From: Amoebidium appalachense
Lineage: Eukaryota; Protista; Ichthyosporea
Length of the DNA: 64,000 nucleotides
NCBI GenBank assembly: GCA_963693365.1
Contig: CAVNZM010000005.1
Coordinates: 6,635,388-6,699,387 of the forward strand
Direction of reading: 5' to 3'
In this document: positions 566-55,677 of the stretch, one piece after another
How the letters are laid out: each line of letters opens with the position of its first letter
Numbering within the stretch: position 1 is the first letter of the stretch
Position numbers and translations under genes: made by a program
The notes under the pieces: model-generated
What the model saw: the letters and a program-made list of their open reading frames with translations, nothing else
Databases searched by the model: none
What the model was told of the DNA's origin: nothing

Positions 566-11761
<11,196 letters not shown>

Positions 11762-12670: not shown

Positions 12671-12723
<53 letters not shown>

Positions 12724-12741
12724 AAAAAAAGAAAGAAAGAA

Positions 12742-12803
<62 letters not shown>

Positions 12804-13650
12804 ACCACTGGCACCTCCACCACCACTTTGACCTATTTTATCACGTTTTGTTCCCGGAGGGCCTTTTCAGGCCCTCTAGGGAAACTACCGTCTACCACAC
12901 AGCACCGACAGTACACTAGTTAAGGTGCTATCTATGAGTTCAGCTAAGCTAAACCATCCTTCACAACCTAACTATAAGTACACACTTTGCCCAGGGCTAC
13001 TACCCCAGCCACGCCGGCAGGAGGCTCCAGTCCTCCCCTCCATTCAAAACCTAGCAATAAACGTTAACCGAGGGCTCTCATTGGTCGATCTACAGTATTG
13101 GGAAGTCCTAGGTGTTGTGTATAGTATTTACGGTGGGTATGGGTGGATGATGGGGTGTGGTGGTGGTGGTGGCGGGGGGTTGCTGCCTAACATTATGTGT
13201 TGTTGTACGTATGTTGTGGCGATGTTTTTGTGGACTAAAAGGTGGGTTTTACAGGGCACACCGGGTCTGTGTGTGTTCCGGCAGTCAGAACAGGCCGGCC
13301 GGGTGTGTGTGGGGGGTGTATTTGTTGGTGTCTTGGGTTTTTGGGGAGCCATACTTTTCTTTCTACGGGTGGTGGGTATATGGTGGTGTTTTTGCATTTT
13401 GGGGGGGGGGGGGGGGAGTGTTGTGTTCCGTGGGTGCCAAATTTTTGAAAAGAAAAAGGACTGCAACTCTACTGTGATTTTTCCTAAGATGGCCCGGGTG
13501 GTGGTCTTGGTGGTGCCGGTACCACCACTTTGACCGGCTTCCTTAATTAAAATAACAGGAGACCGGACGTATCAAACAGAGGACAAAAAACACTACATGC
13601 ACGCCCACACGCGTGCCCGCGCGCACACACACATACATACACACGCGCGC

Positions 13651-13702
<52 letters not shown>

Positions 13703-14444
13703 ACACACACACACACATGCACACACGCCCGGGCACACGTGCACACGCGCACACACATACACATTATGAAGACCCAACCCAAGCAGCAGAACGAATGAAG
13801 TCTTTGAACTTTGCTATTGCGAGTTGAATTATTCTGCAAAGAGAAGATTGTTTCAGCTAGGAAAAAAGAAGAAGCTGAATACATCTATAATTTAGAAGTA
13901 ATTTTAAAGCAGGACTGTTCGTTCATTAGAGCTGCAGATCTAGAGAGATATTTTGTAAGGTATATCGATATTCGCGATCGGCAAAAATGGATTTATTTTT
14001 CAAAGCCGAAAAATCCTTCTGTAACAAAAACTGCACTTAATCACTAACTTGATAAATACTATTTTTGTCATGCAGAAGCTTGTGGAAATTATACGATCAG
14101 AAAAGCATATACCCATTAGAATGTTTTGCCAGTGGCACAAAGTTTGCTTGATGTGGTTGAGCGGCCTACGGTATCAGTATTTATTCCCGGCCGAGGCTGA
14201 AAGCCGAAGACGGTTTACGAGGGAGCCCTACGCGTCGTACGAGAAAACTCTGCCAAGGGGTATTTTCAACTTAGGTTGCTTCTGTCGGTTTTATTGCTCT
14301 CTTGTGGCTCACACAATCTGGTCCCCGGGACCCCCACTACTACATCAATACATACGGTTACACATGCCTATGGTCGCAGATCGATCAACTTGTATGGACT
14401 AAGTCTGGGCTGTATACACACGTATCCACACTGGCTACGTGCCT

Positions 14445-14495
<51 letters not shown>

Positions 14496-14810
14496 AAAAA
14501 AACACCTACCCTTGCCCCTAAGAGGTACACTAACCCAAAGAAGCTAGACGGGGGACTAAAAAGCGCGGGCGGGAGGGTGGGCTAGAGAGAGCAGCGACGG
14601 GGGACAAAAAGTGAGGGTGATTTAACCATCACCCGCTTTTTATAGTACCCTAAAAAGCTGCTACTGTGCCTATTGGGTGATCACTTCGATCTCCCAATAT
14701 GGCACTACTAAGTTTAGAAAATCTGGATTTCCCAAATCAACGATTTTCAACTTAGGTTGCTAGCTATGTCCATAATTCTGCCAACTACAAGCTTACATAA
14801 CCCAACCTTG

Positions 14811-15154
14811 CTAAGCCAATTCACCTGCGGACGCGGGCGGCCGGGCACCCTGCAACATTCCGAAGTAGAGCCAGTCGTCGGCCGTAGGGATGTGGCCGAG
14901 GCCGTAGTGGGACACGGGGGTGCGGCTGCCAAGCTGCCACACACCCAGCCACGACACAAACGCCTCGTCCACAAGCAGGGCACGACAGGCGCCCACCAGG
15001 CCATGGCGCAGGCAGTGCCACGTGACGCCTGCAGCCTCGGTGGCGAGCACCCCCACATGGCGCAACTCGGCGCGCAGCCAATCGTTTCCCACTTTGGGTG
15101 ACGCTTTGGGCACGAGCAGCGCAGTACGGGAGGGTAGAGCTGCCAGCATGTGGT
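14811..15154 (-). pseudogene. C-terminal fragment of a tyrosine recombinase
   Basis: TWHCLRHG (HxxRxG), LGVW (GxW) and HY (catalytic Tyr position); truncated by the Gypsy LTR starting at 15155. Confidence 0.7.
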
Positions 15155-16682
15155 TGTGGTATATTATACCGGATATCTAGTATGGATGTACACAGGTTGA
15201 GATATACGCGCACGTGTACATGTATATATACCACTGTGTTTGATCTTAGGTAGGCCAGTATGCATGTCCCCCCAAGTCTTGTGCGCATGAGCATGAAGTT
15301 AAACATATGTGCACGTGCAGCTTGCAGGATTATTCATGGGAAAACAGATATAATAGTCACATGGGACCGACACGTAGTAGAGGAACCATGAGCGTTAAGT
15401 TATAGTTTTATCATGGGAAAATATGCAAGTAGCCGTGAGGTATGACTGTGGAATGCATCGATAGTCAAGTACTGTCACCCGATTGGCTCACTAAGTTTAT
15501 TGGAACCGTGATAGCCATTGCCGGAGGCAAGACTTCCCCCTCACTCCCGTCGTGGCTCCCCGAGGTGACCGAGACAAAGAGAAGCAGAAATGCAAGTCAG
15601 TGAGGAATTTTATTATTGATTTTAGCCCTAATAAATAATATCAGTATCTGATCAGAAAACCCCCAAAACCCCCGGATAAACCCCCTAAACCCCAGAACAC
15701 TGTGTGTGTGTGCACACGTGTGTGTGTGTGTATGTGTGTGTGTTTGTGTGTGTATGATAGGCTATTGAAGGAACAGCACTTCCAGCACACAATGGCCGAA
15801 AGAACCCCTTCATCTATCCAAGGGTGGGAGGGAGGGAAGAGAAAGCAAGAGCAAACCGTAAGGCACCAACTAATCAGACTGAGGTCTCAGCTTCTGCCCC
15901 TTTACACAAGGTGCCACCAAACCAAGAAAACACCCAAACAGCCTAATTATTACCTTATCACGTTGCTCCCTCCCCTTTTTTCTTTTCACCTACACACTAG
16001 CTCTAAAAACAAGAACTGAACGAACGACGCCCACAGCCAGCTCTACAAAGCTGGTACGCGGCTCACTCACATTTTTAGAACAGTGGAAAAGCCACCAATC
16101 ATATCACCTATCTACTGATAACTACGGATCACTTCATAACTATACCTGATCTATATCCAATCACTAAAGATACATACGACTGAGCTTAACATTCTACCCG
16201 TTAGGGCCAATCAGCTTGCACCGCTATGTAGCCGTTACCGCCGACTGACCGAACACGTGTCATCTCTCACCGCTGCCTCCTCCCGCTCGAGAACAACATG
16301 CCGGAGGCAAGACTTCCCCCTCACTCCCGTCGTGGCTCCCCGAGGTGACCGAGACAAAGAGAAGCAGAAATGCAAGTCAGTGAGGAATTTTATTATTGAT
16401 TTTAGCCCTAATAAATAATATCAGTATCTGATCAGAAAACCCCCAAAACCCCCGGATAAACCCCCTAAACCCCAGAACACTGTGTGTGTGTGCACACGTG
16501 TGTGTGTGTGTATGTGTGTGTGTTTGTGTGTGTATGATAGGCTATTGAAGGAACAGCACTTCCAGCACACAATGGCCGAAAGAACCCCTTCATCTATCCA
16601 AACCTACCCTACTTGTTTTTATTTTGTGATTGTGTCTTTTAAATAATGTGTGTTGGGTGTGTGTAGTAGAAGCCTGTAGCTG

Positions 16683-17726
16683 CTAATCGTGCGTAATCAT
16701 GTGTGGCCTACGGGCCAAGGATTTTGCCTGGGCTGACAGATGAGCGGGCATTGAAATTGCCAGGAGCATGGCCTTGTTCGTGTCAATGTAGTGGTTGAAA
16801 GGCGTCGTGAAATTACGCCACCGACCATTGATACGAATATGCTCATAGTCCTCCCCTCTGAGTGCTGCTGTGGAGGCTGCCCCGTGCCGTGTGCTGTACA
16901 ATGAGAAGTCGCTATCCAGGCCCACAGCCGTCAGACTCTGTTGCATACGAGTTGCTACCAGCGATGGTGTGTACCCAGGATGAAACAGAGGGTCGGATGG
17001 GCGGGAGCCATGGGGAAATGCACCCACTGCCATGAGCTTCTGCAGCAAATGCAAGCACACTGGATCACGGATCACCACCATCTGATGATTGCCCGTTTTG
17101 GACCGTGGAAGAAGCAACACTGCCCTGCCCGCTGGAGCATTGATTTCAATCAACCGTGGATCATTCGGAGGAATGAAGTCTGCCACCGTGCGCCGCGAGA
17201 GCTCCCCCGGCCGGGTGTAGGTTGCGAATGACATACACAGATAGAGTGCTACGTGCGGCATCTTGTATTCCCACAGAGCCGACACTGCCAAAATCATGTA
17301 GTCGTAGGGGAGTGGTCTGTGGTGATTGGTCGGGTTAGCATGGTCCCACCCCCTTAGGACCCTGGCCGACAGGACCAAGGAGTCCTTGCACTGGGGATAG
17401 AAATGGTGGATGGCTGACAGCACCGTCTTGCAGTGGGCGAGCCCGCTGCGGGTCTCTCCCAACTCTTCGTACATGTCAGCTGCATAGCTCGCAAGCATGT
17501 TATCCACCTGCTCTACCGACTGGAAGGTGCTCACCCCATCTTCCACACACCACGCTACGAATTTGTTCAAGGCGTTGTCGTATTTCGCCACTGTGGGAGC
17601 CGTGACATTGAGATTGAGCATATGCGTGATTTTTGCAGAGGGCGACGTCACGTGACGGCATGTCTGCTGGATTGTGGGCAGAAGGGACCCACACACACGC
17701 CGGTCGAAGTGCGGCTGCACACACAA
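16683..17726 (-). CDS. Tyrosine recombinase of element B (probable ATG at 17621)
   Basis: YTRPGEL, RSKT, YSTRHGAAS, NGRW and HYI catalytic motifs; overlaps the RNase H 3' end as in DIRS-order elements. Confidence 0.9.
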   Translation of the reverse strand: MCVQPHFDRRVCGSLLPTIQQTCRHVTSPSAKITHMLNLNVTAPTVAKYDNALNKFVAWCVEDGVSTFQSVEQVDNMLASYAADMYEELGETRSGLAHCKTVLSAIHHFYPQCKDSLVLSARVLRGWDHANPTNHHRPLPYDYMILAVSALWEYKMPHVALYLCMSFATYTRPGELSRRTVADFIPPNDPRLIEINAPAGRAVLLLPRSKTGNHQMVVIRDPVCLHLLQKLMAVGAFPHGSRPSDPLFHPGYTPSLVATRMQQSLTAVGLDSDFSLYSTRHGAASTAALRGEDYEHIRINGRWRNFTTPFNHYIDTNKAMLLAISMPAHLSAQAKSLARRPHMITHD

Positions 17727-20211
17727 GTGCTGCCACCCGCCGGCACAGATGGTTTAGCCGTCGTGAACTCGATCTACCCTTGGCCACCGCAAACAATAAA
17801 GATGTGTTGTCGATGAGATGAGCTACTCTGGTGCTGTGATTTTGTGGTGCTCGCGTGAAACGTCGTAGTGATAATAGCAGCGCGTGCCCCTCGAGGATGG
17901 TGATGTGATCTTCGTGCCGCCACGGAGTAGATATCGGATGGTGCCACTGCAGACCGTCAACTACTTTCAGAAAAGAGTCGTCGGTCGTGGGGTGGTTCGT
18001 GCTGTCGTTACATTCATCGGCTGAAAGGGCGTTAATCACGAGCTCACCGGTGTCGTCCACAGGCCCCAAGAAGGAATAACCGGGTCTGGACACCGACTGT
18101 GCTAATGCCGTCAACGATTGCTCAGCCGTAACGGACGCAATAGAAACACCTGCTCACTTGGTGGACGCATCTGATGCCAACAGAAGAGAGGCGGGAGCAG
18201 CCGTCAAATCACACACAATGAGAGGTGCCAAATCCACCAACAGGGCCAACTCCCCCTTGACTGCAGAGGGGATTGGGCATGCCGTTAGTGGACATTGGCC
18301 GGCTGACAACGCAAACTGATAACTCGCCTCTAACACAGAAAATAAAGCTCTATTCAAAAGCAACAACCACGCCCAGCCCCCAAGCAAACGAGATAACGCC
18401 CGTGGAGCCACCTCCCGCATGAACAGAACCGCCTTTGTGTCGGCTAGTAGCCGCGCCAACCGTGATGCATCCGGTCGAATAACACCGTCCCGTCCTATAG
18501 CCAACCCAAGTGCTACGGTCTCCGGGTGGTCTCGTGACGCCGTGACCGTTTTGGACGGTTTTATTTCGAATCCGTGTGTCTCTCCAGCGCGCCCGGCTGC
18601 CGTCATCTCGGAATTTACAGTAGATTCCTCCAACCCAACCCCCACCCAATCATCCACGTAGATCAAATGTGCCGTATCCGATTGGTCGGTAATGGAATGT
18701 GCCGGTGAAGAATTCGATTGGATGCATCGTTCGATACGTAAAGGCGGGTGCGTGATGTGCTGGTGAGAACGTTGGGCGACAAACGGTGCCCATTTCCAGC
18801 CCATCGGCATAGACAACACCCGCGGATACACCAACCTATCGACACCCGGCAGTCCCACTGCTGAAGACGAAACCGGCGGAAGCCCTTGGTACCAAGACAG
18901 CCAGTCTGGCACCCGAAAACGGTGGTAGAAATTCGAAAAATCGTACTTGGCCACCACCACCGCTGCGTCCTTCGGAACAATGATACTACACAAATCTGCC
19001 GGACTGGGAAAATTCGGATTGGGCGGGTCTATCATGACTGCATTCATGGGGCGAGCATCCATGATAAGACGGTCTTCCTTCTCATCTTTCTCCACCGCAA
19101 ATAAACCATTGATAATCTTTGGGGGCTCCGAAATTTCTGAAAAAGCAACCATACCACAAACATACATACGCTTAGCCAATATAGGCCACTCCGCAGGCGA
19201 CGCAAATGCATGGACAGGACGCCCGGGCAAAGGGTGGGCTCCTTCAGCACCCTCAGTGGTGCTCTCAGTTGCCAACACGCCCCCAAGCCCGCAAACTCCG
19301 TGACCGTTCGGCTGTCCGACCGCGTCACCCGTGCGATTTGACGCCACCACCAACACGTTTGGCTTCTCCATCATCTCCTTGAGGTCAGGTGGAAGGACCT
19401 CTAGGAGCGGAACTGTTGCCCCAAACCCCTCAGGAGGAAGGGCAATACGCTCAGCAACTATGGGGGTGAAAGCTTTTGAGTGATTGAAATATGGGAAAGA
19501 TTCAGACACAGCCGCTAAGGGGACATTGCTGATCCTGCGGCGCATATCCGCGCAAAAAACGAAAATTCGCTGAATGGATTGTGTCTGTGCCGGTGAGGGT
19601 GCATGAGAAAAGTGCGTGGATTTAGGAAAAGGCGTGGGAAAAAAATGTGTGCTGGTAGGAGGGGAAAATGTTGAAAAGTGTGTGTGATTCTGGGAAGAGG
19701 TGTCGTGCATGTTGTGCCAAACATCGTTCCTAGGAGATTCTACCGAGCCAGGTGGCCCATTATACAACGTGTTGATTGCAGCTATGGTTCTATTAACCAA
19801 CTTTAACACAGCAAATCTCTTGTTGAACCTCCCACGTCTTCTTGGAGAGGACAACCTAACACCATCAAGCAACAGCGGGACTACAAAAAGGGGAAGTGGA
19901 AGTAAATCATTAGACACATGGGGAAACAAGCCTGGCTCAGCCGCGCCCGTGACGCCCTCACCAGGGGTACTAACATGGGGGGCTACGGGCTCACCGGTGT
20001 ACCACTTCCGAGGGAAAGAACCAAACTCAGCTGGTTCCGTGGCAGCTGTGTTCGGGAACGAAGGCTGTGGACCGTGGCCTCCCCTTGCCTCAGCTGGGCA
20101 GCTGCGGGAGGCGCAGGGGGGTACGAATCTGTGGAAGCTGGGCCTAGGCATCCTTGTTGCCATCGAACGGTCCATCCACACACACGCGCGCCACCGTGAT
20201 TCCCCCCGCAC
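17500..20211 (-). pseudogene. RT-RNase H of element B with one in-frame TGA (18154-18156)
   Basis: RT motifs DRLIMDAR, KYDFSNFYH, MPMGWKWAP, YVDD; RNase H motifs SDAS, ILEGHAL, IDN, WVPSAHNPAD. ORFs 18154-20211 and 17500-18114 share one frame. Confidence 0.88.
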
Positions 20212-21450
20212 CTCCCCACAGGGGGAGGCCGTGTGTTTACACCGAGCTCGACTACCTAGTAGAGACCGTGCATTGACTCACAATGTCGTATATAAGAGAG
20301 TTCTGCTCGGGAAGAAGAGAGGCTCACTTGCCCATGTCAAGGAAAGCAGAGCACGTATTTGTAATGCTTGGAGTTCAGAAAGTTCACTGTGACTGTATAG
20401 GCAGAGAGACAGACAAAATTTACGTAGTTTTTCACTCTACAAGACTCCTCAGCGCTAGCGAGCTAAACAACATACTGAAGGGAAAAGACAAATGTAAAAG
20501 TCGTATTAATATCTAGAGCGAAAAAAGGAACCTTGAAAATGAGGAGAACGAGCTGGTTAACGTTGAGTTGCCAGAATTCGTGTGACAATTGCAGAAGTCA
20601 ACAGAAAAAAGGACAGCTAGCTAAGGCAACTAGTTTGTGCGCTTTTACAGTAGCACCACCAAACTTAGTTCAACCAACTAACTCTACAAATCCCTTTTAC
20701 CTCTGATGCCAGACACTCACACAAACGCTAAAACGAAAACCAAAGAGAAAGCAAGAGCAAACCGTAAGGCACCAACTAAACAGACTGAGGTCTCAGCTTC
20801 TGCCCCTTTACACAAGGTGCCACCAAACCAAGAAAACACCCAAACAGCCTAATTATTACCTTATCACGTTGCTCCCTCCCCTTTTTTCTTTTCACCTACA
20901 CACTAGCTCTAAAAACAAGAACTGAACGAACGACGCCCACAGCCAGCTCTACAAAGCTGGTACGCGGCTCACTCACATTTTTAGAACAGTGGAAAAGCCA
21001 CCAATCATATCACCTATCTACTGATAACTACGGATCACTTCATAACTATACCTGATCTATATCCAATCACTAAAGATACATACGACTGAGCTTAACATTC
21101 TACCCGTTAGGGCCAATCAGCTTGCACCGCTATGTAGCCGTTACCGCCGACTGACCGAACACGTGTCATCTCTCACCGCTGCCTCCTCCCGCTCGAGAAC
21201 AACAGGGACAGAACCGTGAACCGTATGTGATTGGCTCTCGTAGCCAAAAAGCACATACCGATGCGCATGTCTGAGCCGCTGTGCGAGCTCCGATATAAGG
21301 GCATGTCGGGGGCTTCAGAGCTCACTCAGTGTGCTCGGCTTACTAGGTGTAAGTAGGACTAGCGCGTAACTAAGCAAAGCGTGGTCTAGTCAACCCCGTT
21401 CATTTATAAACATATTGTTTGTCACAGACACACGATCATATTATACAACA

Positions 21451-21466
21451 GCTGAGCTACACCCCC
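21451..21466 (+). promoter_or_regulatory. Primer-binding-site position of Gypsy copy 1 (GCTGAGCTACACCCCC), complementary to a tRNA-Ala-like 5' end
   Basis: Directly follows the LTR terminal CA; reverse complement is GGGGGTGTAGCTCAGC; identical in copy 2 (31641-31656). Confidence 0.7.
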
Positions 21467-21515
21467 TGCAGCTCTAGTTCTTGCGCTGCAAGTGTGCTCG
21501 TATCAAGCAAGTACT

Positions 21516-23417
21516 ATGTTTTTAGTTGTTTGGGTCCTAACATGTCTAACCACCTTGGTGACGACAATGCCGGCCCTAGCGGCCTGCATGGGGGGGAAGC
21601 TAGAAACGCCGACCTCATTTTCCTTGAAGAACTCGGCTATAATGTCCCCCTTTCCTCCCCCGGCGCTTCACCGTGGTACCCTCCTGGAGCAGACATTCCG
21701 TTGCTCGACCGTGTCTACTTCCGTTCACACGACTTGCAACACGACAATCAATACTGCTTCTCTTTTCGTTCAGGGGAAACCGACTACGGACAATCATTTG
21801 ACCCCGAAGACCTGCCACCTGAAGACAATCGACATTCATCAGTCAACCTTCTCCACGGGCTGGAAGTCGAGGTCAACGCAAACGCAAGCAGAGGCACCAG
21901 ACGCCCTGGTACGCGCCCTAACGGAGTATGCAAATTTGCACAACAAGACGGGCGTGAGCCTGGCAGCTTGGTGCTGGTGCGTTCTTGGGTGTCTCCTTCT
22001 GTTCATGCTGCTGGCATTGTTGGTATCGAAGTTTGCCAGCTGTACAGCGCGCACGGCACTGTACCGTTCGTCGTCGGCACTCACCATGCTCCACCAACAA
22101 CTACTCGCCCTCGCGAATGTATTCACTTCCAGGCAAAACTACGCGTGCCTTTCAGGGCAGTCTTCCCACATCACTAAGTCACATGAATTTATCAATCAGT
22201 TAGTGACTCTTAGTCGTGGTGAGCTCGACCTAGTGGTTACTTATTATGGTGACCGGGGCCCTCGAAAATTTCATCCAAGCATGCTCCCCTCGTGGGTTCG
22301 TGCCGGACGGAGCCCCCGTAAGAACTCTGGCCGAGGTGGTAGGGGTGGACGTGGTGGTGGCCGGGGGGGGCATAACAACCCCCCTCCTGCTGCCAACGAA
22401 AATGGGGATGGTAATGCAGGTGGCGGTGGCCCCCCACCTCCCCCGGACGGTGGTGCTGACGGTGGTGCCGGTGGTGCTAATGGTGCCGGAGGTGCTAACG
22501 GTGCTGGTGGTGCCGGTGGTGGTGGTGGTGATGGTGGTGGCGACGGCGGTGACGGTGGTGATGACGGTGACGGTAACGACGGTAACGGTGACGACCGGGA
22601 GGGGAAGGAAAAGATTCAACACATCCCCTCAGCAGCCATTCAGTCCCGTCCTATGCTCGAGGCAGATGCCGATATCGACGAATTCTACAAACAACTCCAA
22701 CATCGTTTAATTTTCTTTTGTATTATGGAGTTGGTGGGCTTGAATCGCACGTTGATGTTTATTCGCATGTGCATGGGCCCCGGGGACCCCCGAGATGCTG
22801 CCGACAACGTCGACCTTTCCACGTGCACCGGCATCGACGATTTTTGGGCTAAGTTCCTTGAGAAGTATTTAGACAAGGAACGTAAGGAGGAGCATTTAGA
22901 CGAGCTGAACAAGCTTCGTTTTATGCACACTCGGGCCTCGATAAAGACATTCCACAAGAAATTTAATTGCATCGTCTCCAACACGGGTCTCAAGAACATG
23001 CCCGAGGTTGTGCTTCATCATTACCAACGTACCCTCAACGACTACCCGGACCTTTGTTCGGAGGCCTGGGCTGCCACCACCCTCAAGCAAGCCATGGCCC
23101 GTGTCATCCGACGGTATGAGGCTGATGTGGGTGCTCACAATTTAAAATGTAACCGTAATGTGGGTGCTGTAGATGAGATGGGTGGTGGTAGTGGGGGGCA
23201 TGGTGGTGGTGGTGGTGGTCACGGGGGTGGCCACGGAGGTAGTGGGGGTAATGTTGGTGGTAAGGGTAAATCTAATGGGGGGGGCAAATGGGCTAAGGAC
23301 AATAAGAAAGATAAGAGGGGGCCCAATTGTTGGGCATGCAAGCAGCCGGGGCATCGTTTTAAAGATTGCCCCACCCGAGCTGCCAAGAAGAACAAGGGCA
23401 AGCAAAGTGAAAAATAG
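21516..23417 (+). CDS. gag: Gag with N-terminal signal-peptide-like and transmembrane segments, Gly-rich linkers, capsid-like region and CCHC knuckle
   Basis: First ATG after the PBS; MFLVVWVLTCLTTLVTTMPALA; hydrophobic LAAWCWCVLGCLLLFMLLALLV; CWACKQPGHRFKDC. Confidence 0.75.
   Translation: MFLVVWVLTCLTTLVTTMPALAACMGGKLETPTSFSLKNSAIMSPFPPPALHRGTLLEQTFRCSTVSTSVHTTCNTTINTASLFVQGKPTTDNHLTPKTCHLKTIDIHQSTFSTGWKSRSTQTQAEAPDALVRALTEYANLHNKTGVSLAAWCWCVLGCLLLFMLLALLVSKFASCTARTALYRSSSALTMLHQQLLALANVFTSRQNYACLSGQSSHITKSHEFINQLVTLSRGELDLVVTYYGDRGPRKFHPSMLPSWVRAGRSPRKNSGRGGRGGRGGGRGGHNNPPPAANENGDGNAGGGGPPPPPDGGADGGAGGANGAGGANGAGGAGGGGGDGGGDGGDGGDDGDGNDGNGDDREGKEKIQHIPSAAIQSRPMLEADADIDEFYKQLQHRLIFFCIMELVGLNRTLMFIRMCMGPGDPRDAADNVDLSTCTGIDDFWAKFLEKYLDKERKEEHLDELNKLRFMHTRASIKTFHKKFNCIVSNTGLKNMPEVVLHHYQRTLNDYPDLCSEAWAATTLKQAMARVIRRYEADVGAHNLKCNRNVGAVDEMGGGSGGHGGGGGGHGGGHGGSGGNVGGKGKSNGGGKWAKDNKKDKRGPNCWACKQPGHRFKDCPTRAAKKNKGKQSEK
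21542..22177 (+). CDS. Overlapping alternative-frame ORF (~211 aa), unknown function
   Basis: Open in both element copies (copy 2: 31732-32373); starts at the second ATG after the PBS. Confidence 0.35.
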   Translation: MSNHLGDDNAGPSGLHGGEARNADLIFLEELGYNVPLSSPGASPWYPPGADIPLLDRVYFRSHDLQHDNQYCFSFRSGETDYGQSFDPEDLPPEDNRHSSVNLLHGLEVEVNANASRGTRRPGTRPNGVCKFAQQDGREPGSLVLVRSWVSPSVHAAGIVGIEVCQLYSAHGTVPFVVGTHHAPPTTTRPRECIHFQAKLRVPFRAVFPHH

Positions 23418-23496
23418 GTAATTGCCGGTGCTAGATGCACGGATACGGCATGTATTGCACATTGTGACCCAGTGGGTCACGAAAAAGTAATTAAAA

Positions 23497-24717
23497 ATGT
23501 GCCTATACCAAGTGCTTCTGCCCCGGCTTCTTCCGATATCCCCCCCTCCGAGCCCCTTTCCCCCGACCCCCGACCCCCCACCCCCCCACACCCATCCCCC
23601 CCCCACAAAGAAACTTCGAACACTCGATAGAATAAGAAAAGTGTTCGATATAAGTGCCATATGCAATGCAGGAAGACGTATCTATGTTAATGTTACGTTG
23701 AGTAATGAAAAATATTTTGCATTGTTTGACACTGGGGCATCATTCACGGTGGTTAGTGAAGCTGTTTTTTCCCGACACATGCAGGAGTTTGCTTTGCAAC
23801 CCTCGGATGTGATTGTTACTTCTGTAAGGAAAAACGATAAAGCTCTAGCTGTGAGTGGTGAAGTGATGCTCCCGTTATGCCTCGGTTCTCAAACATTCAT
23901 GTGGCCTTGCTTAGTAATTAAAAATATTAAGCATGACATGATTATTGGGAACGATTTTGCCAACAAACACATTGCCACTACTAATCATCAAGCACACTCA
24001 CTGACACTGGTGTCGGGGATGGTGGTGCCGACGTCATCATTGCACACCCCCTACACAATGTGTCCTGTTACCGTCAAGCACGTCGACACCACCGTCAAAT
24101 CTGGCTTTGGATGTGTATTACGTGCAACGGTGCAGGTGACTGCTGCTGCTGCTGCTGCTGGCACCCTCGGTATCTTCGAGCCTACTCGTGGTGAATTTCG
24201 AGATAAGTTCCCCCCCACCATCTGTGAAATTAGTGTGGATAAATCAATTGCTGTTGTGTGCGAAAATGGTGTGGGTCCGGATTTGAACGTGTTCGGTACC
24301 ATCGGTCATTTCGTTCCTACGAGCCGACATGAGTACATACACGAACTGAGTGTTTTGCAAGCCGAACCCCACCCCAGTCGTACACAAACCGTCGTTGGTG
24401 CAATAGCGCAGTGCATCAGGTGGGCAACGGGGGGTGGAGAAGGTTGCCTACCCAATTCACCTCCGGCCGTGCCACCGGGCCGGGTGCCTACCGATAACAT
24501 GTGTGGGCACGAAGGGCATGTGAGTGGGACACGAGGCGGTCCGATACACTCACCGATCGACCAATCAATGTGTGCCGTTGATCATGAAAACCCCCCCCCC
24601 CGCGAAAAATTTCGGAAATTTCGGGTGGGGGTGCACACGATGCCGGCCAGGCTCCCCACGGTTTTGATTGGAATAGGGTGCCTCAGAGTATGCTTCCGGA
24701 TGTCAAGAAACTATTAG
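23497..24717 (+). CDS. Retropepsin aspartic protease ORF of Gypsy copy 1
   Basis: ALFDTGASFTVVS and DMIIGNDF motifs. Confidence 0.85.
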   Translation: MCLYQVLLPRLLPISPPPSPFPPTPDPPPPHTHPPPTKKLRTLDRIRKVFDISAICNAGRRIYVNVTLSNEKYFALFDTGASFTVVSEAVFSRHMQEFALQPSDVIVTSVRKNDKALAVSGEVMLPLCLGSQTFMWPCLVIKNIKHDMIIGNDFANKHIATTNHQAHSLTLVSGMVVPTSSLHTPYTMCPVTVKHVDTTVKSGFGCVLRATVQVTAAAAAAGTLGIFEPTRGEFRDKFPPTICEISVDKSIAVVCENGVGPDLNVFGTIGHFVPTSRHEYIHELSVLQAEPHPSRTQTVVGAIAQCIRWATGGGEGCLPNSPPAVPPGRVPTDNMCGHEGHVSGTRGGPIHSPIDQSMCAVDHENPPPREKFRKFRVGVHTMPARLPTVLIGIGCLRVCFRMSRNY

Positions 24718-27700
24718 AAGCACACTCTCGTTGCTTCATCACTACGGACCCCGACGAATTTCCTCAGATTAAAGGATTCACCATGCACATAGACACGGGA
24801 GATAACCCACCGATTCGATTAAAACAGTGGAGGTTGGAACAAGTGAAAGAGCAGGCTGCAAAGGAGATCGTGGAGGATATGTGTCGTAGAGGGCAGATGG
24901 AACAAGCACACAGTCAGTATAATTCACCCACCTTCGTAATACGAAAACCAAACGGAAAATACCGTCTGCTGACTGATTTTCGTGCTCTTAACAAGCAAAT
25001 TCGAAAATCTGCCTGCCACCCATGCCCAACTTGCAACAACAAATAGAGAAGTTGGCTGGGTATAAGTATTTCTGTAAAGCTGATATGTCGGGTGCCTTTT
25101 ACCAAATACTGCTAGACGCTGAGTCACGTGAAAAAACAGGATTTTCTGTGGCTGGTGTGCAGTATCGTTATTGTGTGGCACCACAGGGGCTAAGTACTTC
25201 CCCGTCCCAGCTAGCATCTATCATGACACAGATTTTGGCCCCTCTGGCCGATGACGTGGTGGTATATGCCGATGATTTAGCTGTGGGTGCACACACCGAA
25301 AAAGAATTAATACAGAAGCTTGACCGACTTTTCACCCGCCTCGGTGAATATGGAGTTAAGCTCGATGGGGCAAAGACATACATTGGGCTCACGGAAATAC
25401 CGTTTTTGGGTTGGATTGTAGGTGTGAATGGCATTCGGCCCGACCCGAAAAAGGTTCAGGCAGTGAAAGATTGGCCGGTACCAAACACACTACATCAACG
25501 TTAACTCCGGGGTTTTCTGGGTATTACTTCGTATCTCCGCCGTCACATTTTAAATTATGCAGAGCGAGCCCGGCCCATGAATGCCGAGTGTTACGGAGAA
25601 AAACACCGACGGTTAAAATGGACGGACGAATTAGATCGCTCGTTTAAAGATTTAAAATCGGCGTTATCGGAGGAAGTGCTTGCCCTGCCCGATCTTTCCC
25701 CCACGGGGGGTCAGTTTCTTATTCGTTGTGATGCTAGTCGGTTCTCGGAAGGGGCTTGCCTGTATCAAAAACAAAAAGATGGCAAGTTCCGCACGGTGGC
25801 ATATGCCTCCCGGATGTTTCAACCTACCGAACGTAGGTGGAGCAACATCGAACGAGAAACGCATGCAATCTATTGGGCCCTGAAAGAGTTTAGGGTGTAC
25901 GTGTATGGTCGAGTGAATACTATTGTGGAAAGTGACCATAAGCCCTGTCTTTCTCTTAAAGGTGTCAAACGGATAGCAAACGAACGGATGCAACGGTGGG
26001 CTTTGGAAATGCAGGAGTATGATTTCGATCTATACTACCGTCCTGGCCCTACCATGCACGATGCTGATGGGTTAAGCCGTATAGGATATATTCTGCATGA
26101 GAACGAAAACATACCACTGGAAAAGTGGGATGTGAAAAAGGAATTACAAGAGGTTCTCACAGCAGATTTATCCGAGCTTAGCTCGAAACCAGCCGAAGTG
26201 TTTGTTGATTGGGGTGATGCACTCGAATTCACACACATTTTCGATCCAGACCGCTTGAAATGTGCACAAATTTCTGCACTCAGTCAAGCCGGCCTGCCCT
26301 CCCTTTCTGTACTCGGTGGTGCCGGCTATCAGAAGGAAGCAATTATGATGGCACAGGGGGGGGACAAAATGTGTAAGGATATAATCACGTGGCTCCGGTG
26401 GCTTGCCTCCCTCGATGCCGAGGCCAAACGGGAATGGCAGGCAGGGGGGGAACGAGCTGCACACGGTCTTAATCTTGAGTATTTCGGATACAAAAAGGTT
26501 AAGAAAATAGCACAAATGTGTGTGATAGAGGATGACGTGCTTTATCATGTGGCTAAGGATGGTCGTCGTTGCCTATATGTGCCCGAAATCCTTCGTGCTG
26601 ATTTATTAAGAAGTGTGCACGACGGGGGGGGTCATACTGGCATTGAACGAACTTACGAAATATTATACAATTACTATTGGCCACGCATGCACAAAGATAT
26701 CACTGCTTATGTGAATGCCTGCACACAGTGCCAAGGCCGTAACGATAACCCACACTTGAGAAGTAGGCCATTTGAACAGAGATACGAAAATTTAAAAATG
26801 TTCTCTCGTGTTTCTGTTGACCTTATGGGTCCGTTCACAGAAACGAAAAATGGTAATACTTTCATTTGTGTGTTTATGGATATGGCAACGAAGTATTTAA
26901 TCACTGTGCCCATCCAATTTAATCATGCCGTTAATGTTGCACATGCACTCATGAATGTAATTTGCTATATACACGGCCCCCCTCGTACACTCTTGAGTGA
27001 TCAAGGATCAGAATTTCTCAATGAGCTAATTGTTGAGATTTGCCGTATAGCAAATATTGCACAAGTGAGCACCTCTGCATATCACCCACAAAGCAACGGT
27101 TCCAATGAACGGTCTCATAGATTTATTAATAATGCACTCTCAAAGTACGTTAATTATGAGCACACTAATTGGGACACTCTGTTGCCGGTGGTTACACATG
27201 CATACAACACAACAACACACAAAATTTTGCAATGTACACCGTATTATCTTGTGTACGGGCAAGAAGCAACACAATTCCCTGACGTTGCCCTTCTTAACAG
27301 TAACCACCCGGCACTCAAGGACCCAGAGTGGAAGGCATACCGGCGAGAGTTACTAGCCCGTCTGCCTCTGCTCCGTGCTGTGGTCCAGCAACGTGCCGTA
27401 CGAGAGCCCCCAGGCCCCTCGGTGGCTCGTGAACTTAAGAAAGGTGCACGGATTCGTGTTCGGAATCAAGCCAAAAATATCGGTGCCTGGGATGTACGGT
27501 GGATTACGGGTTACGAAATCGTCAAAAGGGTCGGCCCGGTCACGTACGAGATCCGAAGCTTAGCAACTATGAAAAAATCTAAGTGGCACGTGGACGATAT
27601 TCAGCTTGAATTGAGTGAGCAAAATAGAATTCGGCCTCAAGATCTCTCTCACCTCCCGGACACGGATGAAAGTCACAATTTCAACAAGGTTCTGCCGGAC

Positions 27701-27928
27701 GAGTGGGTGGTGGAAAAGGTGCTTGACGTAAGAATTCAGAAACGGCGCAAGCAATCCACCCCCTACAAGTGGTACCAGATCAAGTGGGCAGGCAAAGATG
27801 AATCATTCACCTCTTGGGAGTGTGAGAAAGACTTAGCCTGCCCGGACAAGATCCGAGAGTTCCACCAACGCAGAGGTGACCTTGCATCGTTCCACGGATA
27901 CATTGACTCATTGTGTGGAGCATGGTGA
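24678..27928 (+). pseudogene. pol: Pol of Gypsy copy 1 (RT, RNase H, integrase, chromodomain), interrupted by frameshifts and a stop
   Basis: YRLLTDFRALN, YADD, CDAS, SDHKP, integrase HHCC and DDE (VDLMGP, SDQGSEF, NERSH), chromodomain WVVEKVLD...YQIKWAG...SWE; lesions near 24595, 25015 and 25499-25504. Confidence 0.92.
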
Positions 27929-28346
27929 CGTATGTCGAGGACGACATACTTCTTTTTACGGTGGGGCGTGTGGTATATTATACCGGATATCTAGTATGGA
28001 TGTACACAGGTTGAGATATACGCGCACGTGTACATGTATATATACCACTGTGTTTGATCTTAGGTAGGCCAGTATGCATGTCCCCCCCAGTCTTGTGCGC
28101 ATGAGCATGAAGTTAAACATATGTGCACGTGCAGCTTGCAGGATTATTCATGGGAAAACAGATATAATAGTCACATGGGACAGACACGTAGTAGAGGAAC
28201 CATGAGCGTTAAGTTATAGTTTTATCATGGGAAAATATGCAAGTAGCCGTGAGGTATGACTGTGGAATGCATAGATAGTCAAGTACTGTCACCCGATTGG
28301 CTCACTAAGTTTATTGGAACCGTGATAGCCATGGGACAGAACCGTG

Positions 28347-31030: not shown

Positions 31031-34000
31031 TGTGGTATATTATACCGGATATCTAGTATGGATGTACACAGGTTGAGATATACGCGCACGTGTACATGTA
31101 TATATACCACTGTGTTTGATCTTAGGTAGGCCAGTATGCATGTCCCCCCAAGTCTTGTGCGCATGAGCATGAAGTTAAACATATGTGCACGTGCAGCTTG
31201 CAGGATTATTCATGGGAAAACAGATATAATAGTCACATGGGACCGACACGTAGTAGAGGAACCATGAGCGTTAAGTTATAGTTTTATCATGGGAAAATAT
31301 GCAAGTAGCCGTGAGGTATGACTGTGGAATGCATCGATAGTCAAGTACTGTCACCCGATTGGCTCACTAAGTTTATTGGAACCGTGATAGCCATGGGACA
31401 GAACCGTGAACCGTATGTGATTGGCTCTCGTAGCCAAAAAGCACATACCGATGCGCATGTCTGAGCCGCTGTGCGAGCTCCGATATAAGGGCATGTCGGG
31501 GGCTTCAGAGCTCACTCAGTGTGCTCGGCTTACTAGGTGTAAGTAGGACTAGCGCGTAACTAAGCAAAGCGTGGTCTAGTCAACCCCGTTCATTTATAAA
31601 CATATTGTTTGTCACAGACACACGATCATATTATACAACAGCTGAGCTACACCCCCTGCAGCTCTAGTTCTTGCGCTGCAAGTGTGCTCGTATCAAGCAA
31701 GTACTATGTTTTTAGTTGTTTGGGTCCTAACATGTCTAACCACCTTGGTGACGACAATGCCGGCCCTAGCGGCCTGCATGGGGGGGAAGCTAGAAACGCC
31801 GACCTCATTTTCCTTGAAGAACTCGGCTGTAATGTCCCCCTTTCCCCCCCCGGCGCTTCACCGTGGTACCCTCCTGGAGCAGACATTCCGTTGCTCGACC
31901 GTGTCTTAGACTACTTCCGTTCACACGACTTGCAACACGACAATCAATACTGCTTCTCTTTTCGTTCAGGGGAAACCGACTACGGACAATCATTTGACCC
32001 CGAAGACCTGCCACCTGAAGACAATCGACATTCATCAGTCGACCTTCTCCACGGGCTGGAAGTCGAGGTCAACGCAAACGCAAGCAGAGGCACCAGACGC
32101 CCTGGTACGCGCCCTAACGGAGTATGCAAATTTGCACAACAAGACGGGCGTGAGCCTGGCAGCTTGGTGCTGGTGCGTTCTTGGGTGTCTCCTTCTGTTC
32201 ATGCTGCTGGCATTGTTGGCATCGAAGTTTGCCAGCTGTACAGCGCGAACGGCACTGTACCGTTCGTCGTCGGCACTCACCATGCTCCACCAACAACTAC
32301 TCGCCCTCGTGAATGTATTCACTTCCAGGCAAAACTACGCGTGCCTTTCAGGGCAGTCTTCCCACATCACTAAGTCACATGAATTTATCAATCAGTTAGT
32401 GACTCTTAGTCGTGGTGAGCTCGACCTAGTGGTTACTTATTATGGTAACCGGGGCCCTCGAAAATTTCATCCAAGCATGCTCCCCTCGTGGGTTCGTGCC
32501 GGACGGGGCCCCCGTAAGAACTCTGGCCGAGGTGGTAGGGTTGACGTGGTGGTGGCCGGGGGGGGCATAACAACCCCCCTCCTGCTGCCAACGAAAATGG
32601 GGATGGTAATGCAGGTGGCGGTGGCCCCCCACCTCCCCCGGACGGTGGTGCTGACGGTGGTGCCGGTGGTGCTAATGGTGCCGGAGGTGCTAACGGTGCT
32701 CAGGCTGGTGGTGGTGGTGGTGATGGTGGTGGCGACGGCGGTGACGGTGGTGATGACGGTGACGGTAACGACGGCAACGGTGACGACCGGGAGGGGAAGG
32801 AAAAGATTCAACACATCCCCTCAGCAGCAATTCAGTCCCGTCCTATGCTCGAGGCAGATGCCGATATCGACGAATTCTACAAACAACTCCAACATCATTT
32901 AATATTCTTTTGTATTATGGAGTTGGTGGGCTTGAATCGCACGTTGATGTTTATTCGTATGTGCATGGGCCCCGGGGACCCCCGAGATGCTGCCAACAAC
33001 GTCGACCTTTCCACGTGCACCGGCATCGACGATTTTTGGGCTAAGTTCCTTGAGAAGTATTTAGACAAGGAACGTAAGGAGGAGCATTTAGACGAGCTGA
33101 ACAAGCTTCGTTTTATGCACACTCGGGCCTCGATAAAGACATTCCACAAGAAATTTAATTGCATCGTCTCCAACACGGGTCTCAAGAACATGCCCGATGT
33201 GTTGCTTCATCATTACCAACGTACCCTCAACGACTACCCGGACCTTTGTTCGGAGGCCCGGGCTGCAACCACCCTCAAACAAGCCATGGCCCGTGTCATC
33301 CGACGGTATGAGGCTGATGTGGGTGCTCACAATTTAAAATGTAACCGTAATGTGGGTGCTGTAGATGAGATGGGTGGTGGTAGTGGGGGGCATGGTGGTG
33401 GTGGTGGTGGTCACGGGAGTGGCCACGGGGGTAGTGGGGGTAATGTTGGTGGTAAGGGTAAATCTAATGGGGGGGGGAAAATGGGCTAAGGACAATAAGA
33501 AAGATAAGAGGGGGCCCAATTGTTGGGCATGCAAGCAGCCGGGGCATCGTTTTAAAGATTGCCCCACCCGAGCTGCCAAGAAGAACAAGGGCAAGCAAAG
33601 TGATAAATAGGTAATTGCCGGTGCTGGATGCACGGATACGGCATGTATTGCACATTGTGACCCAGTGGGTCACGAAAAAGTAATTAAAAATGTGCCTATA
33701 CCATGTGCTTCTGCCCCGGCTTCTTCCGATATTCCCCCCTCCGAGCCCCCTTCCCCCGACCCCCGACCCCCCACCCCCCCACACCTATCCCCCCCCCACA
33801 AAGAAACTTCGAACACTCGATAGAATAAGAAAAGTGTTCGATATAAGTGCCATATGCAATGCAGGAAGACGTATCTATGTTAATGTTACGTTGAGTAATG
33901 AAAAATATTTTGCATTGTTTGACACTGGGGCATCATTCACGGTGGTTAGTGAAGCTGTTTTTTCCCGACACATGCAGGAGTTTGCTTTGCAACCCTCGGA

Positions 34001-37000
34001 TGTGATTGTTACTTCTGTAAGGAAAAACGATAAAGCTCTAGCTGTGAGTGGTGAAGTGATGCTCCCGTTATGCCTCGGTTCTCAAACATTCATGTGGCCT
34101 TGCTTAGTAATTAAAAATATTAAGCTCGATGGGGCAAAGACATACATTGGGCTTACGGAAATACCGTTTTTGGGTTGGATTGTAGGTGTGAATGGCATTC
34201 GGCCCGACCCGAAAAAGGTTCAGGCAGTGAAAGATTGGCCGGTACCAAACACACTACACCAACTCCGGGGTTTTCTGGGTATTACTTCCTATCTCCGCCG
34301 TCACATTTTAAATTATGCAGAGCGAGCCCGACCCATGAATGCCGAGTGTTACGGAGAAAAACACCGACGGTTAAAATGGACGGACAAATTAGATCGCTCG
34401 TTTTAAGATTTAAAATCGGCGTTATCGGAGGAAGTACTTGCCCTGCCCGATCTTTCCCCCACGGGGGGTCAGTTTCTTATTCGTTGTGATGCTAGTCGGT
34501 TCTCGGAAGGGGCTTGCCTGTATCAAAAACAAAAAGATGGCAAGTTCCGCACGGTGGCATATGCCTCCCGGATGTTTCAACCTACCGAACGTAGGTGGAG
34601 CAACATCGAACGAGAAACGCATGCAATCTATTGGGCACTGAAAGAGTTTAGGGTGTACGTGTATGGTCGAGTGAATACTATTGTGGAAAGTGACCATAAG
34701 CCCTGTCTTTCTCTTAAAGGTGTCAAACGGATAGCAAACGAACGGATGCAACGGTGGGCTTTGGAAATGCAGGAGTATGATTTCGATCTATACTACCGTC
34801 CTGGCCCTACCATGCACGATGCTGATGGGTTAAGCCGTATAGGATATATTCTGCATGAGACCGAAAACATACCACTGGAAAGGTGGGATGTGAAAAAGGA
34901 ATTACAAGAGGTTCTCACAGCAGATTTATCCGACCTTAGCTCGAACCCAGCCGAAGTGTTTGTTGATTGGGGTGATGCACTCGAATTCACACACATTTTC
35001 GATCCAGACCGCTTGAAATGTGCACAAATTTCTGCACTCAGTCAAGCCGGCCTGCCCTCCCTTTCTGCACTCGGTGGTGCCGGCTATCAGAAGGAAGCAA
35101 TTATGATGGCACAGGGGGGGGACAAAATGTGTAAGGATATAATCACGTGGCTCCGGTGGCTTGCCTCCCTCGATGCCGAGGCCAAACGGGAATGGCAGGC
35201 AGGGGGGGAACGAGCTGCACACGGTCTTAATCTTGAGTATTTCGGATACAAAAAGGTTAAGAAAATAGCACAAATGTGTGTGATAGAGGATGACGTGCTT
35301 TATCATGTGGCTAAGGATGGTCGTCGTTGCCTGTATGTGCCCGAAATCCTTCGTGCTGATTTATTAAGAAGTGTGCACGACGGGGGGGCTCATACTGGCA
35401 TTGAACGAACTTACGAAAGATTATACAATTATTATTGGCCACGCATGCACAAAGATATCACTGCTTATGTGAATGCCTGCACACAGTGCCAAGGCCGTAA
35501 CGATAACCCACACTTGAGAAGTAGGCCATTTGAACAGAGATACGAAAATTTGAAAATGTTCTCTCGTGTTTCTGTTGACCTTATGGGTCCGTTCACAGAA
35601 ACGAAAAATGGTAATACTTTCATTTGTGTGTTTATGGATATGGCAACGAAGTATTTAATCACTGTGCCCATCCAATCTAAGCATGCCGTTAATGTTGCAC
35701 ATGCACTCATGAATGTAATTTGCTATATACACGGCCCCCCTCGTACACTCTTGAGTGATCAAGGATCAGAATTTCTCAATGAGCTAATTATTGAGATTTG
35801 CCGTATAGCAAATATTGCACAAGTGAGCACCTCTGCATATCACCCACAATGCAACGGTTCCAATGAACGGTCTCATAGATTTATTAATAATGCACTCTCA
35901 AAGTACGTTAATTATGAGCACACTAATTGGGACACTCTGTTGCCGGTGGTTACACATGCATACAACACAACAACACACAAAATTTTGCAATGTACACCGT
36001 ATTATCTTGTGTACGGGCAAGAAGCAACACAATTCCCTGACGTTGCCCTTCTTAGCAGTAACCACCCGGCACTCAAGGACCCAGAGTGGAAGGCATACCG
36101 GCGAGAGTTACTAGCCCGTCTGCCTCTGCTCCGTGCTGTGGTCCAGCAACGTGCCGTACGAGAGCCCCCAGGCCCCTCGGTGGCTCGTGAATTTAAGAAG
36201 GGTGCACGGATAGGTGTTCGGAATCAAGCCAAAAATATCGGTGCCTGGGATGTACGGTGGATTACGGGTTACGAAATCGTCAAAAGGGTCGGCCCGGTCA
36301 CGTACGAGATCCGAAGCTTAGCAACTATGAAGAAATCTAAGTGGCACGTGGACGATATTCAGCTTGAATTGAGTGAGCAAAATAGAATTCGGCCTCAAGA
36401 TCTCTCTCACCTCCCGGACACGGGCGATAGTCACAATTTCAACAAGGTTCTGCCGGACGAGTGGGTGGTGGAAAAGGTGCTTGACGTAAGAATTCAGAAA
36501 CGGCGCAAGCAATCCACCCCTTACAAGTGGTACCAGATCAAGTGGGCAGGCAAAGATGAATCATTCACCTCTTGGGAGTGTGAGAAAGACTTAGCCTGCC
36601 CGGACAAGATCCGAGAGTTCCACCAACGCAGAGGTGACCTTGCATCGTTCCACGGATACATTGACTCATTGTGTGGAGCATGGTGACGTATGTCGAGGAC
36701 GACATACTTCTTTTTACGGTGGGGCGTGTGGTATATTATACCGGATATCTAGTATGGATGTACACAGGTTGAGATATACGCGCACGTGTACATGTATATA
36801 TACCACTGTGTTTGATCTTAGGTAGGCCAGTATGCATGTCCCCCCCAGTCTTGTGCGCATGAGCATGGAGTTAAACATATGTGCACGTGCAACTTGCAGG
36901 ATTATTCATGGGGAATCAGATATAATAGCCACATGGGACCGACACGTAGTAGAGGAACCATGAGCGTTAAGTTATAGTGTTATCATGGGAAAATATGCAA

Positions 37001-37336
37001 GTAGCCGTGAGGTATGACTGTGGAATGCATCGATAATCAAGTACTGTCACCCGATTGGCTCACTAGGTTTATTGGAACCGTGATGGCCATGGGACAGAAC
37101 CGTGAACCGTATGTGATTGGCTCTCGTAGCCAAAAAGCACATACCGATGCGCATGTCTGAGCCGCTGTGCGAGCTCCGATATAAGGGCATGTTGGGGGCT
37201 TCAGAGCTCACTCAGTGTGCTCGGCTTACTAGGTGTAAGTAGGACTAGCACGTAACTAAGCAAAGCGTGGTCTAGTCAACCCCGTTCATTTATAAACATA
37301 TTGTTTGTCACAGACACACGATCTTATTATACAACA
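31031..37336 (+). mobile_element. Ty3/Gypsy chromodomain element, copy 2 (internally deleted)
   Basis: 610 bp LTRs at 31031-31640 and 36727-37336; TSD TCGCT; lacks ~1.43 kb (copy 1 23927-25355) through TTAAGC microhomology; gag frameshifted. Confidence 0.96.
34554..36686 (+). CDS. pol: RNase H-integrase-chromodomain portion of copy 2 pol
   Basis: Near-identical to copy 1 ORF 25577-27928. Confidence 0.9.
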   Translation: MAYASRMFQPTERRWSNIERETHAIYWALKEFRVYVYGRVNTIVESDHKPCLSLKGVKRIANERMQRWALEMQEYDFDLYYRPGPTMHDADGLSRIGYILHETENIPLERWDVKKELQEVLTADLSDLSSNPAEVFVDWGDALEFTHIFDPDRLKCAQISALSQAGLPSLSALGGAGYQKEAIMMAQGGDKMCKDIITWLRWLASLDAEAKREWQAGGERAAHGLNLEYFGYKKVKKIAQMCVIEDDVLYHVAKDGRRCLYVPEILRADLLRSVHDGGAHTGIERTYERLYNYYWPRMHKDITAYVNACTQCQGRNDNPHLRSRPFEQRYENLKMFSRVSVDLMGPFTETKNGNTFICVFMDMATKYLITVPIQSKHAVNVAHALMNVICYIHGPPRTLLSDQGSEFLNELIIEICRIANIAQVSTSAYHPQCNGSNERSHRFINNALSKYVNYEHTNWDTLLPVVTHAYNTTTHKILQCTPYYLVYGQEATQFPDVALLSSNHPALKDPEWKAYRRELLARLPLLRAVVQQRAVREPPGPSVAREFKKGARIGVRNQAKNIGAWDVRWITGYEIVKRVGPVTYEIRSLATMKKSKWHVDDIQLELSEQNRIRPQDLSHLPDTGDSHNFNKVLPDEWVVEKVLDVRIQKRRKQSTPYKWYQIKWAGKDESFTSWECEKDLACPDKIREFHQRRGDLASFHGYIDSLCGAW

Positions 37337-55604: not shown

Positions 55605-55677
55605 TGATCCCGACGGGATTTGAACCCGCGACCCCTCTATCTCCGGTCGAGTGCTCTACCAACTGAGCTACGAGATC
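55605..55677 (-). tRNA. Second identical tRNA-like copy
   Basis: Same sequence as 55235-55307. Confidence 0.75.

Follow-up and report, generated by a model that had tools for sequence, protein, structure and literature searches.

A chromodomain Ty3/Gypsy LTR element of Amoebidium appalachense carries, directly after its 5' LTR, a primer-binding site (PBS) complementary to the first 16 nucleotides of tRNA-Ala. From its sequence we favour, with moderate confidence, a reading in which reverse transcription would be primed by a 5' tRNA-Ala fragment of 14-16 nt, cut in or just before the D-loop, while pairings internal to the element RNA would mask the site. The site itself is real and unusual, and priming by a tRNA 5'-terminal fragment would, if confirmed, constitute a new form of tRNA-fragment priming.

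The element and its copies

The window analysed here is a stretch of 64,000 nt of contig CAVNZM010000005.1 (GCA_963693365.1, positions 6,635,388-6,699,387, forward strand). It contains two copies of the element, with the following features.

15155..15518, + strand: copy 1 5' LTR, first part
21205..21450, + strand: copy 1 5' LTR, second part, with promoter, R, U5 and terminal CA
21293..21300, + strand: predicted promoter, a TATA-like site lying 34 nt ahead of the anti-PBS motif
21328..21340 (31518-31530 in copy 2), + strand: anti-PBS motif that may act as self-primer or mask; its duplex with PBS nt 1-12 has one bulge and one G.U
21451..21466, + strand: PBS of copy 1, perfectly complementary to tRNA-Ala nt 1-16 (to 18 nt if the LTR CA is counted)
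21467..21490 (31657-31680 in copy 2), + strand: hairpin from the first base after the PBS, with 8 perfect pairs in the family's commonest allele
21491..21500 (31681-31690 in copy 2), + strand: second anti-PBS 10-mer, AGTGTGCTCG, closing a local stem on PBS nt 4-12
21542..23417, + strand: copy 1 gag region, two frames, CCHC zinc knuckle at the end
23491..27928, + strand: copy 1 pol region, several broken frames, with protease, RT, RNase H, integrase and chromodomain
27958..27968, + strand: copy 1 polypurine tract adjoining the 3' LTR, preceded by a T run
27969..28346, + strand: copy 1 3' LTR, truncated
31031..31640, + strand: copy 2 5' LTR, intact, 610 bp
31641..31656, + strand: PBS of copy 2, same site
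36727..37336, + strand: copy 2 3' LTR, followed by the 5-bp target duplication TCGCT

The Pfam domain order protease-RT-RNase H-integrase is that of Ty3/Gypsy, with a chromodomain at the integrase C-terminus (PF00385, E 8e-9), and the TG...CA LTRs, polypurine tract and target duplication are those of a Ty3/Gypsy LTR element. No Pfam family matched the gag region. Copy 2 spans 31031-37336 between two 610-bp TG...CA LTRs that are identical at 597 of 610 positions (13 differences), the 3' LTR ending at the same base as the 5' LTR; about 1.4 kb of its pol is missing, and the reading frames are broken in both copies.

Over 610/610 positions the 5' LTRs of copy 1 and copy 2 are identical, and each differs from its own 3' LTR. 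Such identity between separate insertions possibly reflects gene conversion, or an artefact or homogenisation in the assembly, and the two copies therefore count as one observation rather than as independent evidence. Contigs from 4 of 23 sequencing runs reveal a multicopy family with subfamilies. In two runs, contigs have 18 other letters past the end of the LTR, after which its final 72 nt (31569-31640) appear a second time.

The 5' LTR of copy 1 is interrupted by a 5.7-kb insertion (15519-21204) that bears an RT on the minus strand. Its direct repeats are split (15519-15821 equals 16299-16601, and 15837-16298 equals 20743-21204), a layout that, we presume, resembles that of PAT/Ngaro tyrosine-recombinase retrotransposons; Pfam found no recombinase family in the insertion.

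A primer-binding site complementary to the 5' end of tRNA-Ala

The 16-mer GCTGAGCTACACCCCC is present exactly at 21451-21466 and 31641-31656, with no gap after the terminal CA of the LTR, and has no other match in the window at up to two mismatches. Within a few bases of the LTR end, neither copy has a TGG-type site, the hallmark of canonical priming by tRNA 3' ends. The complement of the 16-mer, with either purine at position 5 (G-form or A-form), gave at least 120 matches in viral contigs. Among the matches listed, 91 of 120 begin exactly at nt 1 of a tRNA called by ARAGORN, and 69 of these 91 are Ala (47 among the 72 G-form matches, 22 among the 48 A-form ones), the tRNAs compared being from viral or prokaryotic contigs and not from the host. 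Against one viral-contig tRNA-Ala the pairing reaches 18 nt through the LTR CA. A simple and generous bound, with 1000 tRNA 16-mers and 6 offsets allowed, puts the chance of a 16/16 tRNA match at about 1.4e-6. Complementarity of the PBS to a tRNA anticodon arm was not found, its complement mapping to tRNA nt 1-16 or 1-18. An 18-nt 5' fragment of mouse tRNA-Ala-TGC that starts with the A-form 16-mer is reported in PMC11551137, which indicates that eukaryotic Ala tRNAs with C16, and 5' fragments of this kind, exist.

These results bear out several claims that the earlier note had made from the letters: that both copies carry the 16-mer right after the 5' LTR without a TGG-type PBS, that the match extends when the LTR CA is included, that the complement is the 5' end of tRNA-Ala and stops at G1, and that short 5' Ala fragments exist.

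The two tRNA genes of the window itself have a different 5' end. They are identical (55235-55307 and 55605-55677, minus strand), lie in a 191-bp duplication and carry the anticodon GGA (called Ser); their variable loop is short, position 33 is a C, and the anticodon stem contains a mismatch. They are possibly pseudogenes, SINE-like units or unusual tRNAs.

Self-complementarity of the predicted transcript start

A second candidate partner of the PBS lies within the LTR. The earlier note had described a TATAA at 21294, a TCAGT at 21326-21330 and a 12-bp pairing with one bulge and one G.U, and all were found as described; the LTR holds four TATA-like sites, and the transcript start is predicted. 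Across the entire LTR, the PBS pairs best with the segment 31518-31530, in register with the LTR end (about -18.4 to -18.7 kcal/mol). Equal pairing arose in 10 of 300 shuffled LTRs when any position was allowed and in 0 of 300 at the predicted start, with 5 of 100 in a repeat run. The copia element of the window, taken as a control, gave 18 of 100, i.e. no such pairing. In the folded leader the self-pairing has a probability of about 0.8, and it is present in the minimum-energy and centroid structures.

All of this speaks for Tf1-type self-priming, which is established for Tf1 (PMC7175516) and predicted for 12% of plant elements (PMC6317226). The transcript would start at about 21328, its first 12-13 nt would pair with the PBS, RNase H would free the primer, and the tRNA match would be due to chance or be a relic of earlier capture. 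We nevertheless hold this explanation to be rather unlikely. It leaves the 16/16 complementarity to tRNA-Ala unaccounted for, including the bulged U and the four C's of the PBS outside the self-duplex; at the very positions where the self-duplex has its bulge and wobble, the tRNA matches. The self-duplex is also half as stable as the tRNA duplex (-35.9 kcal/mol over 16 nt).

The wider structure of the Tf1 leader was not found either. Pairing of the transcript 5' end with the PBS is described as the Tf1 signature (PMC7175516, PMC4600332), and Tf1 is reported to need two flanking duplexes (bioRxiv 2022.12.06.519325). In pseudoknot-free folding, no flanking duplex of such a pretzel exceeded chance: the downstream flank was equalled in 282 and 308 of 1000 shuffles, and the U5 flank duplex has 6 bp (p 0.35). 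A pretzel of -27 kcal/mol obtained with one common allele was rejected, since it stands at shuffle level with either natural allele pair, and so was a GAGCT/AGCTC hairpin around the PBS, which depends on a minority allele. The common alleles of the family strengthen two local hairpins instead, a downstream copy of the pairing motif competes with the first, and in the RNase H plus integrase tree the element lies outside the clade of plant and fungal-type chromoviruses. The further argument, that a self-primer would overwrite the PBS, holds in part only: in retroviruses the primer is copied into the PBS, whereas in Ty1 and Ty3 the RNA is the source of the PBS (PMC7472051).

A hairpin and a second anti-PBS motif downstream

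The hairpin that begins at the first base after the PBS is completed to 8 bp by T31663G, the common allele. With this allele it reaches -16.0 kcal/mol (0 of 500 shuffles), against -10.2 kcal/mol with the allele of the window (17 of 500); among the substitutions listed, those at 31666 and 31668 lie in its loop. The single-stranded site between the LTR end and the hairpin is thus exactly the complement of tRNA nt 16 to nt 1.

Just behind the hairpin, the 10-mer AGTGTGCTCG of the predicted transcript start occurs again, a recurrence expected 1.3e-4 times, and it is found nowhere in the window outside these elements. The stem formed by the downstream 10-mer has the same bulge as that of the 5' copy, with a probability of 1.0 locally and of 0.11-0.14 when the 5' copy competes. 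Because it lies inside the RNA, on the 3' side of the PBS, this second 10-mer cannot be a primer, so that the imperfect complement appears to be kept for another job, and the 5' copy weighs less as evidence of self-priming. This job may be to mask the PBS, or to capture the D-stem's 3' strand after opening of the tRNA. Many Ala tRNAs can pair with the 10-mer over 6 bp, at their nt 22-27, and by inspection the mouse 5' half shown in PMC11551137 can do so over 8 bp.

Variation within the family

Variation was read from contigs of four runs at a threshold of 5%, with 40 of 64 substitutions listed. C31652T is the only PBS substitution among the 40, and occurs in two of the four runs, on one contig each. 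It converts the G-form to the A-form, the other common 5' end of tRNA-Ala. Of 124 tRNA-like matches that share the D-arm, four are Ala genes one base from the primer within nt 1-7, and all four differ at this very position. The self-duplex tolerates the change as a terminal G.U (-18.4 to -16.8 kcal/mol), and the variant thus supports the tRNA reading without proving it. Aligning the PBS across family copies, a check proposed in the earlier note, yielded one variant, of the kind expected from a tRNA but compatible with self-pairing as well.

C31652T sits on a contig of a diverged subfamily with 14 differences in 158 nt, and the PBS, with 1 change in 16 nt, is not visibly more conserved there than its flanks. 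The predicted transcript start has no change among the 40 of 64 substitutions listed. None of the 12 indels lies in the PBS or removes the bulge of the self-duplex, and one PBS-spanning contig carries 6 gap letters whose placement is not given. Among the same 40 of 64 substitutions, at a share of at least 5%, no copy has its PBS turned into the exact complement of the self-primer.

Phylogenetic placement and search for relatives

In a FastTree phylogeny of RNase H plus integrase (60 rows, four dropped for short cover), the element falls with support 1.0 in a clade of 10 proteins, made up of unnamed JGI, ENA and Logan proteins and a EukProt protein labelled Awhi. The latter was also the best Pol match in the first search, and we take its label to stand for the ichthyosporean Abeoforma whisleri. 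This clade is separate from the one holding named plant chromovirus-type polyproteins and unnamed SH3_Tf2 proteins, although the deep nodes are weak. In this tree, in which Tf1 and sushi were not included, the element thus appears to lie outside the classical chromovirus clade despite its chromodomain.

No second family with this PBS emerged. Scans of viral and metagenome contigs with single proteins gave no relative with DNA context. The pattern of LTR end plus PBS was matched at 59 metagenome and 18 viral loci, none of which (0/77) has a tblastn match to the seven retroelement frames of the window; as relatives these loci were rejected, being tRNA variants or chance matches. An alignment scan returned 29 Gypsy loci, none closest to the clade of the element and none (0/29) with this type of PBS; the five with a visible LTR pair all have TGG sites. 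A Gag search found no relative, and the translated PBS is absent from the N-termini of 15 related Pol proteins. The claim accordingly rests on one family.

In the same searches, 27 contigs filed in bacterial MAGs were seen to code for Gypsy Pol relatives, and LTR pairs as well as TGG sites occur on several. They are likely to be eukaryotic contamination of the genome bins.

Other retroelements and host sequence in the window

The copia elements of the window, at 46123-52003 and about 43523, have LTR ends followed by GGTTATGGGCCC, presumably a site of the half-initiator-tRNA type. On that assumption, the host probably supports tRNA-fragment priming already. In the segment 40412-44183, a copia RT frame on the minus strand is flanked by a 654-bp direct repeat and a 208-bp inverted repeat, and a primer site lies on the plus strand, an arrangement suggestive of rearranged or nested copies. 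A third LTR family of about 480 bp is found at 38224-38749, 45109-45590 and 58046-58571, with an inverted part at 59374-59555; after its first copy come a TGG-type site and a partial repeat of the LTR end with this site included.

A Pfam search of 97 frames of the window for host genes gave two sub-threshold matches only. The first 15,000 nt (1-15000) are dense in poly-C and CA microsatellites, hold a weak protein-kinase fragment (5472-5828) and are probably a host gene with repeat-rich introns.

Proposed priming mechanism and remaining alternatives

Priming by a 5' fragment of tRNA-Ala is the reading best supported by the identity of the 16-mer with a tRNA end, by a PBS variant complementary to another Ala 5' end, and by a hairpin boundary at G1. 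In the free RNA, the PBS would be masked by one of the two anti-PBS 10-mers, with its four C's left unpaired. The 5' strand of the tRNA, or a ready-made 5' fragment, would then displace the mask, as its duplex is about twice as stable: opening nt 1-16 of the intact tRNA costs a computed 11 kcal/mol or so, against a gain of 36 kcal/mol. A cut would leave a 3'-OH at nt 16, giving a blunt CA end, or at nt 14, giving an end processed by 2 nt, and so yield the primer. The earlier note had proposed a 5' tRNA fragment of 16-18 nt; such a fragment remains the likeliest primer, but 14-16 nt is the more probable length, since an 18-nt primer would cover the terminal CA and remove it from the DNA end unless two ribonucleotides stay.

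The cutting nuclease could be a host enzyme that makes 5' fragments or, more speculatively, the element's own RNase H. Most speculative of all are the ideas that this RNase H would cleave the RNA duplex in the way Tf1 does, only in trans, and that the freed 10-mer would hold the freed 3' strand of the D-stem. Tentatively, the whole could amount to a fourth mode of starting LTR reverse transcription, used by a hitherto undescribed protist clade of chromodomain Gypsy elements: the primer would be the first 14-16 nt of tRNA-Ala, a two-copy decoy mimicking the D-stem strand would close the PBS, strand exchange would take place with the intact tRNA, and the element's RNase H would cut the D-loop, performing the Tf1 reaction in trans. 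We see this extended scheme as possible but doubtful.

Both primers might also be in use, either in a lineage in transition or with self-priming as the default and the tRNA fragment taking over when abundant, for instance under stress. The two complementarities are both above chance and in the same register, and the predicted transcript start is similar to tRNA nt 5-16, from which a single deletion and a single transition separate it. Such dual use is nonetheless improbable in our view: no PBS converted to an exact self-primer complement was found among the substitutions listed, the downstream 10-mer reveals a motif kept for a job other than priming, and no self-priming relative is known in the clade. 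As to the earlier note's idea of a Tf1-type element or a transition between modes, the self-pairing above chance stands; a transition from Tf1-type self-priming is weakened by the position outside the classical chromovirus clade, the missing pretzel and the second 10-mer, which is unable to prime.

Binding of the tRNA or its 5' fragment without priming, whether to remodel the leader or as silencing by host 5' fragments, another RNA serving as primer, would agree with a structural role for the 10-mer, which can form 6 bp with many Ala tRNAs (nt 22-27), and has a parallel in mammalian tRNA 3' fragments that target PBS sequences (PMC7472051), but it is highly improbable, given that the match stops right at the edge of the LTR, the place required for the 3' end of a primer, that no alternative primer site is found there, and that a multicopy family would lose a site serving host silencing alone.

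Comparison with known priming systems

Priming by a 5' fragment of tRNA-Ala would be closest to that of the half-tRNA elements (Drosophila copia, yeast Ty5, Osser, Bryco, Bianca, the rust-fungus elements Copia and Helenus, and Candida Tca), which likewise use a 5' tRNA piece made by an internal cut and a PBS without TGG that abuts the LTR. They differ in that the cut is in the anticodon arm and the primer is of about 40 nt, whereas here the site corresponds to nt 1-16 with a proposed cut in the D-loop. Their tRNAs are iMet, Ile, Tyr, Asp and Arg, in Ty1/copia elements; here it is Ala, in a Ty3/Gypsy element. Rust-fungus and Candida elements with other anticodon-arm or internal sites are reported, among them the internal tRNA-Arg site of Candida Tca (PMC10886601, PMC4139406).

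The Tf1/sushi group (Tf1, Tf2, Tj1, Tosmo, Tcn1) likewise consists of chromodomain Gypsy elements with the PBS right after the LTR CA; their PBS pairs with an LTR segment that follows a TATA-like site, and the short primer comes from the RNA 5' end. The present element departs from this group by an imperfect self-duplex, the missing pretzel, a perfect tRNA complement extending beyond the self-duplex and a separate RNase H and integrase clade. Skipper of dictyostelids shares the chromodomain, a CCHC Gag, separate gag and pol and the lack of TGG after the LTR; compared here by description alone, it differs in a degenerate polypyrimidine stretch that lacks both a known partner and a complement in the LTR (PMC5006619). 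Canonical priming by tRNA 3' ends, as in Ty3 and most Gypsy elements, also draws on host tRNAs but needs a TGG near the LTR, which is absent here. The choanoflagellate chromoviruses Sroscv1-2 of Salpingoeca have TGG sites (PMC6875170).

No PBS complementary to a tRNA 5' terminus is described in the full-text literature searched, which leaves aside Repbase, subscription papers and some supplements. The literal PBS and the G-form complement are printed in none of these texts, and the A-form in two small-RNA papers. The searched supplement text of PMC6317226, probably without its large element table, holds none of the PBS motifs, and the single match in the supplement of PMC6875170 lies inside a coding region. 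In its accessible part, the plant survey PMC6317226 distinguishes three primer types, finds half-tRNA priming in Ty1/copia only and lists 6% of elements as 'no PBS'. A metazoan Gypsy survey appears, from its accessible text, to have looked at tRNA 3' ends only (PMC13524379). Primers are unmentioned in the accessible part of a preprint on ichthyosporean and other DAM-bearing elements (10.64898/2026.05.21.726589). The priming of Skipper, SM-Tcn1 and Tcn2-5 is left unexplained in the accessible texts of PMC5006619, PMC2864245 and PMC7175516.

Implications

As surveys search for three primer types only, they would overlook a complement of tRNA nt 1-16 or file it as self-priming. The finding provides a one-line test for all unassigned LTR elements. 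If it holds true, fragment priming would extend from copia to Gypsy, and short 5' tRNA fragments would gain a pro-transposon role, whereas 3' fragments are known as inhibitors. It would also offer a testable link between self-priming and tRNA priming through the cleavage of an RNA duplex by RNase H. Should the RNase H of the element indeed act in trans, self-priming and tRNA priming would be joined in one mechanism.
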